24,000 bases of DNA from Candidatus Methanoperedens sp. (GCA_027460585.1 JAPZAP010000084.1:20454-44453); one strand, 5' to 3'; counted from the stretch's first letter, positions 2,945-22,267 are shown. Notes: generated by a model not told the origin, from the letters alone. Numbers and translations are program-made.

Positions 2945-3562
2945 ATGTCTGACGAAAAAGAGGAAGTAAACAATATATTCACTGAAAAAGGTGAGACAAA
3001 AGTCAAATCAGAAAATATTACAGAGGGAGAGCTATCATGTGTTATTGTCTATTCTGATAGAAAACACGTCAATTATATTAATTCAGTTATATCTTTTTTT
3101 GAATCTGTATTGAAAAAGGATGGTTTTAGACCACAAAGACTGGGAGATGAAATCAGAAGTACTGAAGATTTTCTGGAAAAATTAGAAAAGTTGATTGATA
3201 ATTGCGTTTTGGGTATCATAATACTTGATGGCTTTAGACCTAATGTAATATTCGAGTTTGGTCTTTTAAAAGGAAGAAAAAAACCTATAATCGTATTACA
3301 GTCAGTAAATGCATCAATTAATATAAAAACATTGTTTGAATCGTATGAAGAAGCAGGCTTATCCGAAAAAAAATTTAAACTGATGAAAGATCCTTTAATC
3401 AAAATTTCAAATCATTTATCAGATTTTGGGGGAAAGTATATAGCATATTTTGATTGGGGTGCTATGGAAAGCGAAAATAAACATCCTTCAGTAGTATTAG
3501 AAAATGAACTTAAGAAGAATAAAGACCAAGTAACTAAAGAGAAATTGAAAATGTTACAATAG
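2945..3562 (+). CDS. TIR-like domain protein (Cap12/Pycsar-effector-type 'predicted nucleotide-binding, TIR-like' family)
   Basis: 205 aa. The motif order is CVIVYSD (strand 1), FLEKLEKLIDNCVLGIIILDG, RPNVIFEFGLLKG (conserved Glu, E104, nt 3254-3256), KPIIVLQ, and SDFGGKYIAYFD. It parallels the family consensus as I remember it (VFIVHG ... AVVLLTPDD ... RQNVIFELGyF.GklGr.rV..L ... PSDysGv.Y...D). This comes from memory of the family, not from a search. Confidence 0.6.
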   Translation: MSDEKEEVNNIFTEKGETKVKSENITEGELSCVIVYSDRKHVNYINSVISFFESVLKKDGFRPQRLGDEIRSTEDFLEKLEKLIDNCVLGIIILDGFRPNVIFEFGLLKGRKKPIIVLQSVNASINIKTLFESYEEAGLSEKKFKLMKDPLIKISNHLSDFGGKYIAYFDWGAMESENKHPSVVLENELKKNKDQVTKEKLKMLQ

Positions 3563-3578
3563 GGATTATATCGAAATT

Positions 3579-5825
3579 ATGACACCATCACATACTCAAG
3601 ATTTCCATGAGTTTTTACAACCATTGACAAGTATTATTATAAAATATTATACGGGTGATGAAGAATTCAATATTACAGATCTCAGAAAAATACATAAAAA
3701 AATAACTTCTACAGCGCGGAGAAAAAATTTTCAGGTGCCTAATGATGTTTATAGCATGATTGCGGCTACTTATTTATCCAAAGCTAAACAAATAAAAGAA
3801 AGTCCTGAAATTATTGATTACCTCAACTCTGCCTTAGATACATATCAAGAAATATTTAAATCAATCTCAAATGAGGAGAATCCCATTCCATACAGTGAAA
3901 CACGGAAAAAAATTGGAGGGGTTTATTGGGAGCTTTCACAATATATAAACACGAAAGAAAACGCCAAAAATGCAATATATGAATATGAAGAAGCCCTCAA
4001 AGTCTATACTCTTGATAACTACCCCATTGACTATGCAACGACTCAGAACAATCTTGGGAATGCATACGGAACGCTTGCTGAGGTAGAAGATAAGGACGAT
4101 AACTGCAGGAAAGCAATCAATGCATACGAGGAAGCTCTTAAAGTTTATACTCTTGATCTTTACCCAATTGACTATGCAAAAATTCAGAACAATCTTGGAA
4201 ACTTATACATCAATTTGAAAAAGTTTGAGGATGCGGAGAAGGCATACACAGAGGCTTTGAAAATTCGTAGGGAACTGGCAAAAAAAAGTCCTGATACTTA
4301 CTTGCCTTCCGTGGCTACGTCTCAGAACAATCTTGGAATATTATATAGAAATTTAGGGAAATTTGAGGAAGCGAAGAAGGCATACATAGAGGCTTTGAAA
4401 ATTCGTAAGGAACTGGCAAAAAAGAGTCCTAATATTTACTTGCCTTCTGTGGCCACGTCTCAGAACAATCTTGGAATCTTATATGGAAATTTAGGGATGT
4501 TTGAGAAAGCAGAGAAGACATACATAGAGGCTTTGAAAATTCGTAAGGAACTGGCAGAAAAGAGTCCTGATGCTTACTTGTCTGCTGTGGCTATGACTCA
4601 GAACAATCTTGGAAACTTATATAGAAATTTGAAAAAGTTTGAGGATGCAGAGAAGACATTCAAAGAGGCTTTGAAAATAATTAAGTTACTCGTAAGAAAA
4701 AGTCCTGATGTTTACTTGTCTGATGTCGCTATGATTCAGAACAATCTTGGAAACTTATACAGCGATTTGAAAAAGTTTGAGGATGCGGAGAAGGCATTTA
4801 CAGAGGCTTTGAAAATTCGTAAGGAACTGGCAGAAAAGAGTCCTGATGCTTACTTGTCTGCTGTGGCTATGACTCAGAACAATCTTGGAAACTTATACGG
4901 CGATTTGAAAAAGTTTGAGGATGCGGAGAAAGCATACCTAGAGGCTTTGAAAATTTTTAAGGAACTAGCAGAAAAGAGTCCTGATGCTTACTTGCCTGAT
5001 GTCGCTATGACTCAGAACAATCTTGGAATCTTATATGGCGATTTGAAAAGGTTTGAAGATGCGGAGAAGGCATATACAGAGGCTTTGAAAATTCGTAAGG
5101 AACTAGCAGAAAAGAGTCCTGGTGCTTACTTGTCTTATGTCGCTACGACTCAGAACAATTTTGGAAACTTATATAGAAATTTAGGGAAATTTGAGGATGC
5201 GGAGAAGGCATATACAGAGGCTTTGAAAATTCGTAAGGAACTGGCAGAAAAGAGTCCTGATGCTTACTTGCCTTATGTCTCTACGACTCAGAACAATTTA
5301 GGAAACTTATATAGAAATTTGAAAAAGTTTGAGGATGCGGAGAAGGCATTTACAGAGGCTTTGAAAATTCGTAAGGAACTGGCAAAAAAGAGTCCTGATG
5401 CTTATTTGCCTGCTGTGGCAACGACTCAGAACAATTTTGGAAACTTATATAGAGATTTGAAAAAGTTTGAGGATGCGGAGAAGGCATTTACAGAGGCTTT
5501 GAAAATTCGTAAGGTACTGGCAAAAAAGAGTCCTGATGCTTATTTGCCTGCTGTGGCAACGACTCAGAACAATCTTGGAAAATTATATAGAGATTTGAAA
5601 AAGTTTGAGGATGCGGAGAAGGCATTTACAGAGGCTTTGAAAATTCGTAAGGTACTGGCAAAAAAGAATCCTGATGCTTATTTGCCTGCTGTTGCAACGA
5701 CTCAGAACAATCTTGGAAAATTATATAGAGATTTGAAAAAGTTTGAGGATGCGGAGAAGGCATTCGTTGAGGCTTTAAAAATTCTTAAAGAATTGGAAAA
5801 TAAGGTTTCCAATCCAAGACAATGA
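3579..5825 (+). CDS. Tetratricopeptide-repeat protein (TPR_10/TPR_12-like long repeats), 748 aa
   Basis: It starts 16 nt after the TIR-like gene. There are 13 QNNLGNLY-type units with the consensus FEDAEKAyTEALKIRKELAEKSPDAYLP.VATTQNNLGNLYRDLKK. No Walker motifs or any other enzymatic signature are visible. Confidence 0.9.
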   Translation: MTPSHTQDFHEFLQPLTSIIIKYYTGDEEFNITDLRKIHKKITSTARRKNFQVPNDVYSMIAATYLSKAKQIKESPEIIDYLNSALDTYQEIFKSISNEENPIPYSETRKKIGGVYWELSQYINTKENAKNAIYEYEEALKVYTLDNYPIDYATTQNNLGNAYGTLAEVEDKDDNCRKAINAYEEALKVYTLDLYPIDYAKIQNNLGNLYINLKKFEDAEKAYTEALKIRRELAKKSPDTYLPSVATSQNNLGILYRNLGKFEEAKKAYIEALKIRKELAKKSPNIYLPSVATSQNNLGILYGNLGMFEKAEKTYIEALKIRKELAEKSPDAYLSAVAMTQNNLGNLYRNLKKFEDAEKTFKEALKIIKLLVRKSPDVYLSDVAMIQNNLGNLYSDLKKFEDAEKAFTEALKIRKELAEKSPDAYLSAVAMTQNNLGNLYGDLKKFEDAEKAYLEALKIFKELAEKSPDAYLPDVAMTQNNLGILYGDLKRFEDAEKAYTEALKIRKELAEKSPGAYLSYVATTQNNFGNLYRNLGKFEDAEKAYTEALKIRKELAEKSPDAYLPYVSTTQNNLGNLYRNLKKFEDAEKAFTEALKIRKELAKKSPDAYLPAVATTQNNFGNLYRDLKKFEDAEKAFTEALKIRKVLAKKSPDAYLPAVATTQNNLGKLYRDLKKFEDAEKAFTEALKIRKVLAKKNPDAYLPAVATTQNNLGKLYRDLKKFEDAEKAFVEALKILKELENKVSNPRQ
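4185..5795 (+). repeat. Intragenic tandem repeat array with an exact 138-nt (46-codon) period, about 11.5 units
   Basis: The CAGAACAAT landmark recurs at 4185, 4323, 4461, 4599, 4737, 4875, 5013, 5151, 5289, 5427, 5565 and 5703, every interval being 138 nt. An older, degenerate unit lies at 4044 (141-nt spacing). The units starting at 5427 and 5565 differ at 4 of 138 positions by my manual comparison. Confidence 0.9.
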
Positions 5826-10861: not shown

Positions 10862-11317
10862 TCATTTTTCAGGATAATTACCCAGATTAGAAACTATAAA
10901 CTCCATCAATGAATTCAATATAAAATCAGCTTTTTTGATTGCTTCTCTTGCATCATCTTCAACATATTCTCCGGATGGAATCCATATAGGTTTATCCGGT
11001 CGTGAAAAAAGAGGATATCTGGATTTTATTCCTTGAATCTCAAGTTCCCTCGCATAAGTTAAAATTTCAGAAAAAACTTTTTTATCAAAATCATTACTGA
11101 ATTCCTTTTCAAAGAATGCAGTCACTTTGTGTTCCCCTGAGATGATATTTCTGATAGCCAGGCATGATTTTATCGCTTTCTCAGATGATTGATGGGCAAA
11201 ATATATCGCCCTGCTATAAATTCCGTTTTCAAAAAGAAGTTTTGCCGACTTCAAATCAAGTTTTGATTCTGTTAGGAAGGCACTGGCTATTTTTGTGAAA
11301 TCAAACATTAATTTCAC
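10862..11317 (-). CDS. HEPN domain protein (toxin partner of a HEPN-MNT pair)
   Basis: 151 aa. YFAHQSSEKAIKSCLA and the ..SRYP.. motif are characteristic of PF05168-type HEPN domains. It overlaps the upstream MNT gene by 17 nt. Confidence 0.8.
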   Translation of the reverse strand: MKLMFDFTKIASAFLTESKLDLKSAKLLFENGIYSRAIYFAHQSSEKAIKSCLAIRNIISGEHKVTAFFEKEFSNDFDKKVFSEILTYARELEIQGIKSRYPLFSRPDKPIWIPSGEYVEDDAREAIKKADFILNSLMEFIVSNLGNYPEK

Positions 11318-11738
11318 CAGTAATTTTCCATGTATTTATTCCTATTCTGAGAATGTTCCCGCTAATATTTTTTGAATATAAATGGAATAATCTATCTATA
11401 CAAGATTTCCCGTGCAATATTTTAATAGGGTGATCGAAAATGTTCATCATTATTGGATTTACGGAATTTATTGCATCTTCCATTTCCTTTTCAGTGTAGA
11501 GGAGTATGTCAGAAATACCATGTCGATCAAGTTCCAGAATTATATTATCACGCTTGCGCCAGTCTAAAGGGAGATTTTCAGCAAGTACAAGTAAGTCATA
11601 ATCTGAATATTTTCTTGCCATTCCACTGGCGCGGGAGCCAAATAGAACAATGGCTTTCAGGTTATTTCCGAATAACTTTTTAGAAATATTGATGAACGTT
11701 TGTAATGTCTTATCCTCATCTTTAAATTGAGAAATCAT
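11301..11738 (-). CDS. Minimal nucleotidyltransferase (MNT, antitoxin partner)
   Basis: 145 aa. LFGSRASGMARKYSDYDLLVL matches the G-S-x(n)-D-x-D polymerase-beta-fold NTase motif. Confidence 0.85.
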   Translation of the reverse strand: MISQFKDEDKTLQTFINISKKLFGNNLKAIVLFGSRASGMARKYSDYDLLVLAENLPLDWRKRDNIILELDRHGISDILLYTEKEMEDAINSVNPIMMNIFDHPIKILHGKSCIDRLFHLYSKNISGNILRIGINTWKITGEINV

Positions 11739-18122: not shown

Positions 18123-19751
18123 ATGGCAGTATTAAACTTTAAGGGGAAAACATTTGTTCAAAATCATCATCTTGCAGTAAAGTATCATCAGCTTTTACCC
18201 CAGAAAGATAAAAGCCAGACAGATAAAGTCAGCCTGAATGATAATCTTATAATCCACGGGGACAACCTCAAAGCTTTGAAAGCTCTCCTACCATCATATG
18301 CAGGTAAAATAAAGTGCATTTACATTGATCCTCCTTATAACACAGGAAATGAAAATTGGGTTTACAACGATAATGTCAATAGCCCGATGATGCAGGATTG
18401 GCTGGGGAAGGTTGTAGATAAAGAAGATTTTACAAGGCATGATAAATGGCTCTGCATGATGATGCCGAGATTGAAGCTTTTGCGGGAATTGTTAAGAGAC
18501 GATGGAGTTATTTTTGTCAGTATTGATGACAATGAACAACATCGATTAAGATTTTTAATGGATGAGGTATTCGGAGAAGAAAATTTTATTGCCAATATTA
18601 TCTGGCAAAAAAAATTTTCACCTCAAAATGACGCTAAATTCTTTTCGGATAATCACGATTTTATAGTTGTTTATGCCAAGAAGAAAAATGGTGGAGAAGA
18701 AATAGGTGGCTGGGTACGTAAATTATTGCCTAGAACTGAACAAATGGAAGAGAGATATTCTAATCCCGATAACGATCATCGAGGGCCGTGGAGTTCCGGA
18801 GATTTATCAGTCAAAACATATTCTAAAGCGTATGATTATCCAATTACAACACCGTCAGGCAAAATAATAAATCCTACCAAAGGACGATGCTGGTACACTT
18901 CAAAAGAAAATCTGCAAAAGTTAATTGAAGATAATAGAGTTTGGTTTGGAGAAAAAGGAGATAATGTTCCACGCATAAAACGATTTCTTTCTGAAGTACA
19001 ATCTGGATTAGTACCTGTTACAATATGGTTACATCAAGATGTTGGGCATAATCAACAAGCACGACAGGAATTAAAAGAGATATTTTTGGATGTTGACTTT
19101 CCATTTGAAACGCCAAAACCAGTAGCATTACTTAAAAGAATATTACAACTTTCAACAAGTAAAGATTCCATCATCCTTGATTCTTTCGCAGGCTCCGGCA
19201 CAACAGCTCATGCTGTTTTAGAATTAAATAAAGAAGATAGTGGCAATCGCAAATTTATCTTGGTAGAGTGTGAAGACTACGCAGATAAAATAACAGCAGA
19301 AAGAGTAAGAAGGGTAATAAAAGGTGTCCCGAATGCAAAAGACGAAACTTTAAAGAAAGGATTAGGCGGCACATTCAGTTATTTTGAACTTGGCGATCCT
19401 ATTGAGATGGAAAGTATTCTGGAAGGAAAGAATCTTCCAGATTATCTTGAACTTGCCCGCTATGTCTTTTATACGGCTACAGGTGAAGAATTTGACTCCG
19501 AGAAAGTTGATGAAAAACGCAATTTTATTGGTGAATCTAAAGAGTATGAAGTATATTTATTCTACAAGCCTGATATTGAATATTTAAGAACGACGGCGCT
19601 TACTCTTGATAAAGCAAAAAATTTAGGTGAGTATAAAGATAAAAAACGGTTAGTTTTTGCGCCAAGCAAGTATTTAGACCATGATTATCTTCTGAAATAC
19701 CGCATAGACTATTGCCAGTTGCCTTTTGAGATATATAAACTGAAGAGTTAG
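18123..19751 (+). CDS. mod: Type III restriction-modification DNA methyltransferase (Mod), beta-class N6A/N4C methylase
   Basis: 542 aa. Motif IV IDPPYNTG (nt 18327-18338) precedes motif I DSFAGSGTTAHAV, with a variable region between them (the beta-class order typical of Type III Mod). It lies directly upstream of res. Confidence 0.85.
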   Translation: MAVLNFKGKTFVQNHHLAVKYHQLLPQKDKSQTDKVSLNDNLIIHGDNLKALKALLPSYAGKIKCIYIDPPYNTGNENWVYNDNVNSPMMQDWLGKVVDKEDFTRHDKWLCMMMPRLKLLRELLRDDGVIFVSIDDNEQHRLRFLMDEVFGEENFIANIIWQKKFSPQNDAKFFSDNHDFIVVYAKKKNGGEEIGGWVRKLLPRTEQMEERYSNPDNDHRGPWSSGDLSVKTYSKAYDYPITTPSGKIINPTKGRCWYTSKENLQKLIEDNRVWFGEKGDNVPRIKRFLSEVQSGLVPVTIWLHQDVGHNQQARQELKEIFLDVDFPFETPKPVALLKRILQLSTSKDSIILDSFAGSGTTAHAVLELNKEDSGNRKFILVECEDYADKITAERVRRVIKGVPNAKDETLKKGLGGTFSYFELGDPIEMESILEGKNLPDYLELARYVFYTATGEEFDSEKVDEKRNFIGESKEYEVYLFYKPDIEYLRTTALTLDKAKNLGEYKDKKRLVFAPSKYLDHDYLLKYRIDYCQLPFEIYKLKS

Positions 19752-19753
19752 GT

Positions 19754-22267
19754 ATGGAACTTAAAGAATATCAGAAAAAGACATTGGAAACAATAAAACT
19801 TTATCTTGATTCCCTGGCTGATTTTAAAGCAAAGAATGATAAGGCTGTTGAAATAGACCCTGAACTCTCTATCGATTTTCCATTAAAAGCATGGGAAAAA
19901 GTTATTGGGAGAACATATTATTCTAAGAAAAATGGCCTGGGTGAAGAACTACCGGATTTTTACATTAAGATTCCCACAGGAGGCGGTAAAACGGTACTTG
20001 CCTGCCATACTATAGACCTGATCAATAAAATATATCTTAAAAAACAAACCGGAATTGTTTTATGGATTGTTCCAACAACACAGATTTATAGACAAACACT
20101 TGACAATTTAAGAAATCGTGAGCATCCATATCGTCAGGTGTTAGATATTTCAAGCGGCGGCAGAACACAAATTCTGGAAAAAATGGATAAATTCAGCGCT
20201 TTAGATATAAAAGAAAATCTTGTTGTAATGCTTTTGATGCTACCGTCTGCAAGTAGACAGAATAAAGAAGTACTAAAGATATTCAAAGACAGCGGGAGTT
20301 TTGCGGACTTTTTTCCACAGGAAGATGATAGGGAAGGACATGAGAAACTCATTAAACAATTTCCCAATTTACATTATTTTGGCGATGAAATTGGATTTTT
20401 CGGGAAAATTGCAAAAACATCCCTTGGGAATACACTGAGGATTTTAGAACCCATAATTATTATTGATGAAGGGCACAAAGCATATAGCGAAATTGCACAA
20501 AAAACAATCCGGGATTTTAATCCTTCCATAGTTGTTGAATTATCAGCCACACCGCCTCATAACAGCAATAATTTAGTTAATATCAGCGGACAGGAACTTA
20601 ACTTGGAGGACATGATAAAACTTGATTTGCATATTACTAATAAAGCAGAACCAGACTGGCAAAATACAATGCTTGCAAGTGTAGAAAAAAGAAACTTTCT
20701 GGAACAAAAAGCCAAAGAATATGAAGCTAATACAGGTGAATTTATCCGCCCTATATGTCTCATACAGGTCGAACGAACAGGTAATGACCAAAAAGGTACA
20801 AAATATATTCATGCTGAGGAGGTTAAAGATTATTTAATCAAACAATGCGGTATCCCAATTGAGCAGATAGCAATAAAAAGTAGCGAAAAAGATGATATTG
20901 AAGGAATAGAGCTATTAGCTAAAGATTGTCATGTTCGTTATATAATCACCAAACACGCATTACAAGAGGGTTGGGACTGCGCATTTGCATATATTCTCAC
21001 AATTTTGACTAATCCGGGTTCAGAGCTTAGTATCACTCAATTGGTTGGACGGATTTTAAGGCAGCCAAAAGCAAGAAAAACTAAGGTTAAGGAGCTTGAC
21101 GAGAGTTACGTTTTCTGTTTCAGACCGCGAGCAACAGAAATCTTAGAAAATATAAGGAAAGGATTTGAAGGGGAAGGACTTGGGGATTTAGCTGGCAAAG
21201 TTGTAGTTGAAGAAGGCGAATCCGAAATTGTGGATGCTACAAAAGAAAGAATTGTAGGTTATAGAGACAAATTTAAAAAGTTTGAAGGGAAAATATATCT
21301 CCCCAAATTCGTAATTCAGGAAAATGGAGGTTGGCGGGATATCAATTATGAAATGGATATACTAAGTAGAATCAATTGGAGTATGGTTAATTTTGATGGA
21401 TTGATGAACATTTCACTTTCTGAGATAAAGGCTAAAGAAGAAAATGTTACAATAGGAATCAGTGAAGATACAAAGAAATTAATTGAAACAAAAGAAATAA
21501 TTTTTGGCGAAGGTGGATTGGAAATCGACAATGTTTTTATAACACGACAGATTTTAGATATTGTCCCAAATCCATGGGAAGCATTTGAAATTGCTAAAAA
21601 TACCATAGATATATTCCTAAAAAAGTATGATGAACATATATTAGCCAATAATCTTGTTTTTATTATTGATGAATTAAGAAAGCTTCTTGAAAAGGAACGA
21701 GATAAACTGGCAGAGTCTATTTTCAGAGAACAAATATCTAAAAAAACCATGTTCTTTTTCTTGCTTCACGGTAAAGGAGGATATGAATTACCAAGCAGAA
21801 TCAAAGTTAAAAAAAATTCAAAACCTCTTATTAGAAATGATTACACCTCTTTACAAAGAAGTTTATTTGATTTTGTAGAGGACGAAAAATTTAATAATAC
21901 TGAGAAAGCAGTGGCGCTTTATCTCGATGAGCAGGAAAAACTTCTATGGTGGTATAGAAACATGTCGAGACAAGATTACTATTTGCAAGGGTGGAAGAAA
22001 AATAGAGTTTATCCAGATTTTATTTTCTCCGAAATTGATAGTAATGTGCAGGATGATTATAGTAAAGTATTCGTTGTTGAAACAAAGGGATTACATCTAA
22101 AAAACGAGGATACTGATTACAAAAAGAATATCTTTGATTTTTGCAATAAGCTGGGGATACAAAAAAATTGGACTGAGTTGAACATAGAATTTGATCAAAA
22201 TATAGAATTTCAAGTGATTTTTGAAGATGAGTGGAAAGCAAAAATAAATGGAATATTTGGAGTATGA
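19754..22267 (+). CDS. res: Type III restriction enzyme Res subunit (SF2 helicase plus C-terminal PD-(D/E)xK nuclease)
   Basis: 837 aa. It has Walker A IPTGGGKT, DEGH box IIIIDEGHK, SATPP, and motif VI QLVGRILRQ. The C-terminal YPDFIF...VFVVETKG is a nuclease-like motif. It starts 2 nt after mod. Confidence 0.85.
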   Translation: MELKEYQKKTLETIKLYLDSLADFKAKNDKAVEIDPELSIDFPLKAWEKVIGRTYYSKKNGLGEELPDFYIKIPTGGGKTVLACHTIDLINKIYLKKQTGIVLWIVPTTQIYRQTLDNLRNREHPYRQVLDISSGGRTQILEKMDKFSALDIKENLVVMLLMLPSASRQNKEVLKIFKDSGSFADFFPQEDDREGHEKLIKQFPNLHYFGDEIGFFGKIAKTSLGNTLRILEPIIIIDEGHKAYSEIAQKTIRDFNPSIVVELSATPPHNSNNLVNISGQELNLEDMIKLDLHITNKAEPDWQNTMLASVEKRNFLEQKAKEYEANTGEFIRPICLIQVERTGNDQKGTKYIHAEEVKDYLIKQCGIPIEQIAIKSSEKDDIEGIELLAKDCHVRYIITKHALQEGWDCAFAYILTILTNPGSELSITQLVGRILRQPKARKTKVKELDESYVFCFRPRATEILENIRKGFEGEGLGDLAGKVVVEEGESEIVDATKERIVGYRDKFKKFEGKIYLPKFVIQENGGWRDINYEMDILSRINWSMVNFDGLMNISLSEIKAKEENVTIGISEDTKKLIETKEIIFGEGGLEIDNVFITRQILDIVPNPWEAFEIAKNTIDIFLKKYDEHILANNLVFIIDELRKLLEKERDKLAESIFREQISKKTMFFFLLHGKGGYELPSRIKVKKNSKPLIRNDYTSLQRSLFDFVEDEKFNNTEKAVALYLDEQEKLLWWYRNMSRQDYYLQGWKKNRVYPDFIFSEIDSNVQDDYSKVFVVETKGLHLKNEDTDYKKNIFDFCNKLGIQKNWTELNIEFDQNIEFQVIFEDEWKAKINGIFGV

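Follow-up and report, generated by a model that had tools for sequence, protein, structure and literature searches.

The DNA considered here is a stretch of 24,000 nucleotides (nt) from Candidatus Methanoperedens sp. (GCA_027460585.1 JAPZAP010000084.1:20454-44453), referred to over its full length as the window, which carries two adjacent genes on its + strand. The first, open reading frame (ORF) A, occupies positions 2945..3562 and encodes 205 amino acids (aa). The second, ORF B (3579..5825), encodes a 748-aa all-alpha protein of tetratricopeptide repeats (TPRs) that lacks a P-loop. The stop codon of ORF A and the ATG of ORF B are separated by a spacer of 16 nt (3563..3578, + strand), and ORF B is read in a different frame. 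A preliminary description, made from the sequence alone, had placed both genes at these positions, strand and spacing, and had proposed an undescribed defence module made of a stand-alone TIR-like protein and a TPR protein. The gene structure was reproduced; the comparisons reported below indicate, however, that ORF A and ORF B are a natural fission of one ancestral protein, in which a TIR/nucleoside deoxyribosyltransferase (NDT)-like domain is linked to a TPR array without a nucleoside triphosphatase (NTPase).

The N-terminus of ORF A (residues 1-27) is predicted to be disordered. It is followed by a TIR/NDT-like domain of the N-glycosidase type (approximately residues 29-175) and a C-terminal pair of helices (180-204). 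Four motifs occur in the order given in the preliminary description, i.e. CVIVYSD (32-38), GIIILDG (90-96), RPNVIFEFG (98-106), which includes E104, and SDFGGKYIAYFD (159-170). The signature loop and helix, encoded at 3230..3262 on the + strand, comprises the codons G96-F-R-P-N-V-I-F-E104-F-G106 and contains the presumed catalytic Glu. Among Pfam families, PF10137 (the TIR domain of CAP12 and Pycsar) gave the best match to ORF A with E 3.5e-5 and 24.2 bits, at a gathering threshold of 24.7 bits, and PF05014 (nucleoside 2-deoxyribosyltransferase) followed with E 2e-4 and 21.8 bits. PF10137 is passed by the related family protein P0063 (26.9 bits), reaches E <= 1e-5 in five of 83 long family members (best 1.9e-7), and is present as a precomputed assignment on several ORF A homologues. 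PF13271 (DUF4062) did not match ORF A at E <= 1, a SIR2 Pfam match was likewise absent, and NCBIfam and PADLOC returned zero matches for this protein.

The structure of ORF A was predicted with AlphaFold2 (AF2) from an input of 18 homologues. The resulting model (predicted local distance difference test, pLDDT, 74; predicted template modelling score, pTM, 0.70) is a five-stranded alpha/beta sandwich with strands at residues 30-36, 61-66, 89-94, 115-120 and 166-169, in which E104 lies within helix 99-110, after the third strand. A Foldseek comparison of this model with the PDB retrieved the plant TIR domain of RRS1, DNPH1, the cytidine monophosphate (CMP) N-glycosidase BcmB and nucleoside deoxyribosyltransferases, all at E ~1e-4. 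Searching the PDB sequences with a profile of the ORF A homologue alignment gave just two spurious matches at E <= 10.

Conservation is concentrated around the presumed catalytic residue. The family motif DGFRPNVxFExG, containing E104, is invariant, with D95, G96, R98, P99, N100, E104 and G106 unchanged across the 18 homologues; S159 and D160 are invariant or near-invariant in the homologue alignments. In a wider set of 22 homologues E104 is again invariant and R98, P99 and N100 are at least 90% conserved, and 142 of 166 family proteins contain the motif PN[VI]xxE-G. Alignment of the family profile to human DNPH1 with hhalign, used solely to locate the Glu position, paired E104 with the Glu of GVGYELG whether run locally or globally, although this alignment is not significant alone (probability 4.8%). 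The DNPH1 sequence was validated with the PDB, in which Gln takes the place of this Glu in entry 8qhq. In sum, ORF A has a TIR/NDT-like fold that is nearest to PF10137 and has a conserved Glu, and the match is above chance, in agreement with the original reading of its motifs. Relatives in which the Glu is replaced include the giants P0117 (3473 aa) and P0131 (3530 aa) together with P0122 (840 aa), all E to K, as well as P0067 (E to Q) and P0160 (E to H). This loss is reminiscent of the natural E-to-K change in BcTir.

The relationship between the two genes was apparent from single-chain relatives. Placed end to end, ORF A and ORF B align with P0022, a 699-aa Hodarchaeota protein, over 393 residues at 50% identity (E 1e-131), and the alignment runs unbroken over the junction. 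P0022 corresponds to a 710-aa ORF at locus L014 of a Hodarchaeota metagenome-assembled genome (MAG). The first ~99 residues of ORF B (3579..3875, + strand) form a linker domain which, in other lineages, either extends the TIR-like protein at its C-terminus or lies between the domains of a single chain. Thus, ORF A homologues of 275-306 aa have a C-terminal extension that aligns with ORF B residues 1 to ~100 as its homologue, and the linker matches residues 211-305 of P0006 at 41% identity (E 4e-18). Among GTDB genomes, the single-chain form was found in one anammox planctomycete and in Hodarchaeota, Nitrosocosmicus and Promethearchaeota. In Methanothrix the protein is split (279 + 704 aa and similar), with the cut ~80 residues downstream of the point used by the window clade. 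Hence the sequences indicate that fission happened at two independent points in the family, one in the window clade and one in Methanothrix. The label of a "stand-alone" TIR-like protein is therefore misleading, as ORF A is a product of fission rather than an autonomous protein. Conversely, the functional tie between ORF A and ORF B that had been suspected from their proximity becomes firmer than could be known at that stage, because the two derive, as its halves, from one ancestral protein.

A split of this kind could also reflect a frameshifted single-chain gene that is decaying and no longer works, and the different frames of two ORFs only 16 nt apart, together with fragmented TPR genes in the relatives at L011, L021 and L007 (408 + 145 aa), would be in keeping with such a pseudogene. 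We consider this highly improbable. Both ORFs are intact and full length, the same short form of ORF A recurs in four homologues (P0002-P0005) at 62-67% identity, and Methanothrix retains its second, independent split in several genomes. The downstream DNA of the window-type orthologues was inspected at one locus, L001, which has an intact 827-aa TPR gene that overlaps the TIR-like gene by 4 nt where the window has a 16-nt spacer. As the split is thus found with different junctions in the window and in L001, it is maintained, and an assembly error or frameshift artefact was rejected as its cause. The broken TPR genes of the relatives consist of two to four ORFs after the TIR-like gene (L021:1710-2863, L011:1044-2506 and L007:6492-8140) and could result from decay or from repeat-assembly errors in metagenomes.

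ORF B is a TPR protein throughout, as originally described; the Pfam scan matched TPR_12 with E 9e-117 in 13 stretches. Its tandem array (4184..5804, + strand) consists of 138-nt (46-aa) units in 11.7 copies with 89% matches, and QNN[LF]G is invariant in the 46-aa unit. Units 1 and 2, in the part of the gene ahead of the array (3579-4183), are of an "EDKxxNC" type ("AEVEDKxxNCxxAIxAYEEAL") that also fills the Methanothrix and Hodarchaeota proteins, whereas the eleven units 3-13 belong to a different, lineage-specific type; one unit type has thus been amplified recently. These 11 regular units share 78-99% pairwise DNA identity. When the units of the window and of L001 are compared, the best match within a gene is 0.88-0.99 as against 0.80-0.88 between the orthologues, for which non-repeat DNA is 0.79-0.83 identical, and the unit number differs (13 in ORF B, 14 in the L001 orthologue). 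As units are more similar within a gene than between orthologues and vary in number, the array indicates recent expansion or concerted evolution. An AF2 model of a chimera of ORF A and ORF B residues 1-326 (pLDDT 84) gave LGN/Pins and kinesin light chain (KLC) as best PDB matches, both of them TPR superhelices wound around extended peptides. The same chimera was run through Foldseek in search of a two-domain counterpart, for example ASK1 or SARM1, and TPR proteins only were returned. Diversifying selection at hypervariable ligand-contact positions was considered and is not claimed, as the signal is mixed and the two most variable unit positions (10 and 36) are not among the canonical groove positions.

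The extent of the family was determined with a profile search (E <= 1e-3) against 1.84 billion representatives at 50% clustering, which returned 291 family representatives, many of them 450-1200 aa long. Proteins of at least 450 aa account for 69 of 166, and among the matches listed the TIR-like domain is at or near the N-terminus. TPR_12 was detected in 57 of the 83 members of at least 330 aa. Close relatives are scarce: a word-indexed search of 5.8 billion protein clusters found only 21 close matches to ORF A, and a hypothetical protein from a Ca. Methanoperedens MAG has the same sequence (100% identity). A second word-indexed search, with a diverse domain alignment, gave 29 mostly short matches without single-chain members or informative names. 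The gene directly after the TIR-like gene encodes a TPR protein at L001, L002, L007, L009/L010, L011, L012, L017-L019, L021 and L022. This adjacency, which the preliminary description had made a matter for checking in other genomes, holds in all split loci with an intact TIR-like gene, the sole exception being a truncated 154-aa copy. Hosts include Methanoperedens, Methanothrix, Nitrosocosmicus, two Asgard lineages and one anammox bacterium. The TIR/NDT-like domain is accordingly linked to a TPR array in an obligatory manner, by fusion or by adjacency, and without an NTPase.

The latter point had been part of the preliminary description and is borne out across the family. NTPase families are absent from the Pfam matches listed for the two window proteins as well as from the 25 most-matched Pfam families of the 83 long members. 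A Walker-A-like string occurs in three of 170 family proteins, probably by chance, and both ORF A and ORF B lack a Walker A motif; a hidden NTPase in ORF B was ruled out by the Pfam scan together with the missing Walker A. SAVED or cyclic nucleoside monophosphate (cNMP)-binding sensors, CD-NTases and pyrimidine cyclases were found neither in ORF A and ORF B nor in the scanned flanking genes, gave no PADLOC match, and are equally absent from the wider family. The defence-model set used was PADLOC-DB v2.0.0 (2023), in which no model matches the enzyme domain, so that the blank predicted for PADLOC was indeed obtained.

These properties allow for a comparison with described immune systems. The effectors of cyclic-oligonucleotide-based antiphage signalling systems (CBASS; Cap12/TIR-SAVED) and of Pycsar (PycTIR) resemble ORF A in the best Pfam match, in a motif of the R-P-N-V-x-F-E-x-G type and in the conserved Glu. 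This motif type is a hallmark of PF10137, and the PF10137 effectors of CBASS and Pycsar are NADases. The window pair differs in its input module, which is a TPR array, and in having neither a SAVED/cNMP-binding sensor nor a cyclase gene. With STAND, Avs and NLR-like proteins it shares an N-terminal effector and C-terminal TPR sensor repeats, but the NTPase switch that defines those proteins was not found in the window proteins or the family. At L002:2081-5764, a 1227-aa STAND protein of DUF4062-NB-ARC-TPR layout lies directly upstream of the TIR-like and TPR pair, so that an NTPase-containing and an NTPase-free design, both headed by TIR-like domains, are neighbours there. Among the loci examined, DUF4062 was only seen in this separate STAND protein.

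Closer parallels exist in systems that join an NADase directly to an alpha-solenoid or auxiliary sensor without an NTPase and, upon activation by a phage protein, cause abortive infection via NAD+ loss, as in Vulcan, Swarozyc and DSR2. Vulcan, a TIR-like NADase of the DUF4062/NIR type fused to HEAT repeats, responds to a phage protein, and the activator of Swarozyc is the phage portal. Unlike the window pair, these systems use other enzyme families (ORF A has no DUF4062 or SIR2 match) and HEAT-type or other repeats, and are single polypeptides. Within the present family, a subfamily of 1033-1103 aa (P0063, P0068, P0079, P0080, P0101, P0128 and P0129) has a TIR-like head followed by ~850 further residues. 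The three members scanned (P0063, P0068 and P0101) have no Pfam match in this region at E <= 1e-4, TPR included, and it could represent a different sensor module, like HEAT in Vulcan.

The layout as such has precedents with TPRs. E. coli TIR-II, whose activity against phage has been validated, is built of TIR and TPR, located on one protein or two, with an ATPase in only ~30% of homologues (PMC11350192). The window architecture fits this description of TIR plus TPR, one or two proteins and an optional ATPase. ORF A is at best a distant relative of TIR-II, given that tblastn of ORF A against phage and plasmid collections found nothing. BcTpr of B. cereus (system accession OOQ93166.1) consists of a MilB-like glycosidase (residues 1-189) and a TPR domain of ~226 residues, is an NADase that needs N82 and E86, and binds cyclic ADP-ribose (cADPR) (bioRxiv 10.1101/2023.05.26.542521). 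ThsI, the effector of type VIII Thoeris, combines a "CMP hydrolase" domain with TPRs and responds to cADPR; type VII employs a SLATT effector, and rare operons contain both SLATT and ThsI (bioRxiv 10.64898/2025.12.03.692087). According to both preprints, such TPR assemblies were predicted earlier by Aravind and colleagues, and the BcTir/Tpr preprint cites Burroughs and Aravind 2020. ThsI and BcTpr resemble the window pair in an N-terminal NDT/MilB-like glycosidase domain followed by TPRs, in the absence of an NTPase and in the existence of stand-alone "core" forms, and BcTpr does so in its P-N-x3-E spacing (N82/E86, as compared to N100/E104 in the window). The claim of an undescribed layout consequently did not hold, as TIR-II, BcTir/Tpr and ThsI already represent it, fused or on two genes and NTPase-free. 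What stands of the preliminary interpretation is that ORF A has this fold, that it is functionally coupled to ORF B and that an NTPase is missing; the novelty of the design does not.

These likenesses raise the question of whether the pair could be an orphan effector of the ThsI/BcTpr type, in which the TPRs sense not a viral protein but a small NAD+-derived nucleotide, e.g. cADPR, made by a TIR protein from another locus, and the enzyme depletes NAD+ or nucleotides. The cADPR activation of ThsI and cADPR binding by BcTpr, the shared P-N-x3-E catalytic spacing and the match of the ORF A model to BcmB would suit this explanation, and the "core Tpr architecture alone" is reported as the commonest arrangement in the BcTir/Tpr preprint (29 of 78 operons). 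Moreover, TPR partners of the Methanothrix type match TPR-S (PF20308; threshold 27.6 bits) at 57-69 bits (57 bits at L007, 69 bits at L009), and P0022 matches it at 30 bits. These matches are always outscored by TPR_12 and are therefore not specific. In ORF B, no TPR-S match was obtained at E <= 1e-3 with the N-terminal 234 residues or the last three repeats, and TPR-S is absent from the best 25 of 41 families for the whole protein. The array of ORF B has 13 units and is of the peptide-binding KLC/LGN type, with long, near-identical TPRs, in contrast to the TPR domain of BcTpr with its ~226 residues only. Likewise, the best Pfam family of the window enzyme is PF10137 rather than a CMP-hydrolase annotation, no ThsB/BcTir-type partner TIR gene adjoins the window pair or any related locus examined, and the window family is mainly archaeal, with the protein split on two genes. 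The distinction from ThsI and BcTpr is drawn at the level of their published descriptions. On balance, an orphan effector appears unlikely. The pair is best read, by analogy, as a divergent, mainly archaeal, split variant of the described NTPase-free design of TIR/N-glycosidase plus TPR.

Genomic context adds to this picture. The G+C content is 0.30-0.39 over positions 3001-5500 as compared to 0.45-0.49 in the flanks, which agrees with the AT-rich character noted at the outset. HicA and HicB are encoded directly upstream of ORF A, as expected from the preliminary description, with AAA ATPase and Hsp20 genes beyond, and downstream of ORF B follow genes for glutamate dehydrogenase and an ADP-forming acetyl-CoA synthetase. 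At two related loci (L009:768-1706 and L010:720-1658), a 312-aa SLATT protein (SLATT_1 E 4e-18, DUF4231) is encoded on the same strand 4 nt upstream of the pair. The SLATT, TIR-like and TPR genes look like a three-gene operon at these loci, which resembles SLATT (ThsH) and ThsH + ThsI Thoeris operons minus a separate TIR gene, and the rare Thoeris operons with SLATT and ThsI can equally be cited in favour of an orphan effector. On a metagenomic contig (L022:10088-16282), the pair is located beside a complete Lamassu system (LmuA, LmuC, LmuB; LmuB E 1.7e-75) and near the PADLOC candidates PDC-S18 (E 1.7e-93) and PDC-M57B (E 5e-59). The defence-island signal is real at some of the loci.

The context also bears on a function outside defence, i.e. 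a regulated enzyme of nucleotide or NAD metabolism, or a module that binds nucleotides without catalysis, that is mounted on a TPR scaffold and serves ordinary physiology. Housekeeping enzymes do exist among NDT, DNPH1 and LOG-type folds, the Glu is missing in some relatives, and many loci have metabolic neighbours only; the window pair itself sits between Hsp20/AAA ATPase genes and glutamate dehydrogenase. We nevertheless judge this explanation to be quite improbable in view of the patchy spread over distant phyla, the low G+C of the pair, the small number of close matches in the first word-indexed search, and the rapid change of repeat number with homogenisation of repeats. Furthermore, SLATT, Lamassu, PDC and toxin-antitoxin neighbours occur at some loci, and all characterised proteins with the same layout are immune proteins.

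Taken together, the pair is probably, with moderate confidence on our part, the split form of an NTPase-free antiviral sensor-effector in which a helical linker connects a TIR/NDT-like N-glycosidase domain at the N-terminus with a TPR array at the C-terminus. Low G+C, homogenised repeats of differing number, and SLATT, Lamassu/PDC and HicAB neighbours are the reasons to read it as a conflict system, and it is a good candidate archaeal defence module. Based on the precedents of the BcTpr NADase, TIR-II, Vulcan and Swarozyc, a mechanism can be proposed. The two products would come back together through the ORF A helices at the C-terminus and the ORF B linker, and the TPR superhelix would serve as input module, its ligand most likely being an invader-derived protein or peptide held in the Asn-lined groove. 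Ligand binding may lift an inhibition of the TIR-like domains or gather them, upon which they would cut the N-glycosidic bond of NAD+ or another nucleotide. Cleavage would either halt growth of the infected cell or yield a nucleotide signal; where relatives have a SLATT gene upstream, the nucleotide product would probably gate a membrane pore.

Several observations weigh against a catalytically active TIR-like defence module. The PF10137 score of ORF A falls 0.5 bit short of the curated threshold. In Foldseek, flavodoxin-like folds score equally to TIR and NDT proteins (ArsH, the top match, and NQO1), and the TM values of the ORF A model are modest at 0.4-0.7. The Glu is replaced in a minority of relatives (by K, Q or H), so that catalysis is not universal across the family. 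Of the variation between TPR units, only a part affects canonical groove positions (2, 9, 12 and 13 of the TPR), and the units show no non-synonymous excess (571 non-synonymous vs 287 synonymous codon differences). Lastly, flanking genes are ordinary or unrecognised at many loci, among them L013-L016 with their single-chain forms and, for the split form of Methanothrix, L017 and L018, and PADLOC gave no match among the scanned neighbours at L014-L016.

Apart from the pair, the window contains further loci with possible links to conflict systems. A 73-aa ORF without Pfam match is located at 2211-2432 on the - strand, between hicB and ORF A, and may be the decayed toxin-antitoxin gene mentioned in the preliminary description; with ~150 nt from its end to the start of hicB, there is no room for a full-length downstream partner gene. 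At 10862-11738 (- strand), within a patch of low G+C, a HEPN protein (151 aa, E 1e-17) overlaps a nucleotidyltransferase (145 aa), and the two form a toxin-antitoxin module of the HEPN/MNT type. At 18123-22267 (+ strand; G+C 0.31-0.37), an 837-aa ORF, helicase- or restriction-like by look, begins 3 nt after the gene of an N6_N4_Mtase DNA methylase (E 1.4e-43), and the two resemble a restriction-modification pair of type III. No hits were obtained when the window was scanned for Rfam families and tRNAs.

The window pair opens no new category. Its family is set apart by a PF10137-like enzyme without a PADLOC model, the missing partner TIR gene, long and near-identical TPRs, a mainly archaeal distribution and two fissions. 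A bolder interpretation, which we regard as doubtful though conceivable, is that of a distinct, mostly archaeal family of NTPase-free immune proteins for pattern recognition, in which a PF10137-like TIR domain is directly coupled to a fast-evolving, self-homogenising TPR array. Such a family would have been fissioned twice into a sensor/effector pair of two components and, in some lineages, would both sense and generate the signal for a SLATT pore, in a Thoeris-like nucleotide-signalling pathway that archaea, Asgard archaea among them, possess natively. Both natural fissions, which are independent of each other, reveal cut points between separable enzyme and sensor parts; these suit reconstitution in vitro and studies of the control that a TPR array exerts over the active site of a TIR-like enzyme. 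Experimentally studied archaeal immune systems are few, and the family counts 291 representatives at 50% clustering. Should the family be active, the design of an NADase plus alpha-solenoid sensor without NTPase, hitherto described for TIR-II, ThsI/BcTpr, Vulcan, Swarozyc and DSR2, would reach into archaea and take in the PF10137 branch of TIR-like enzymes.

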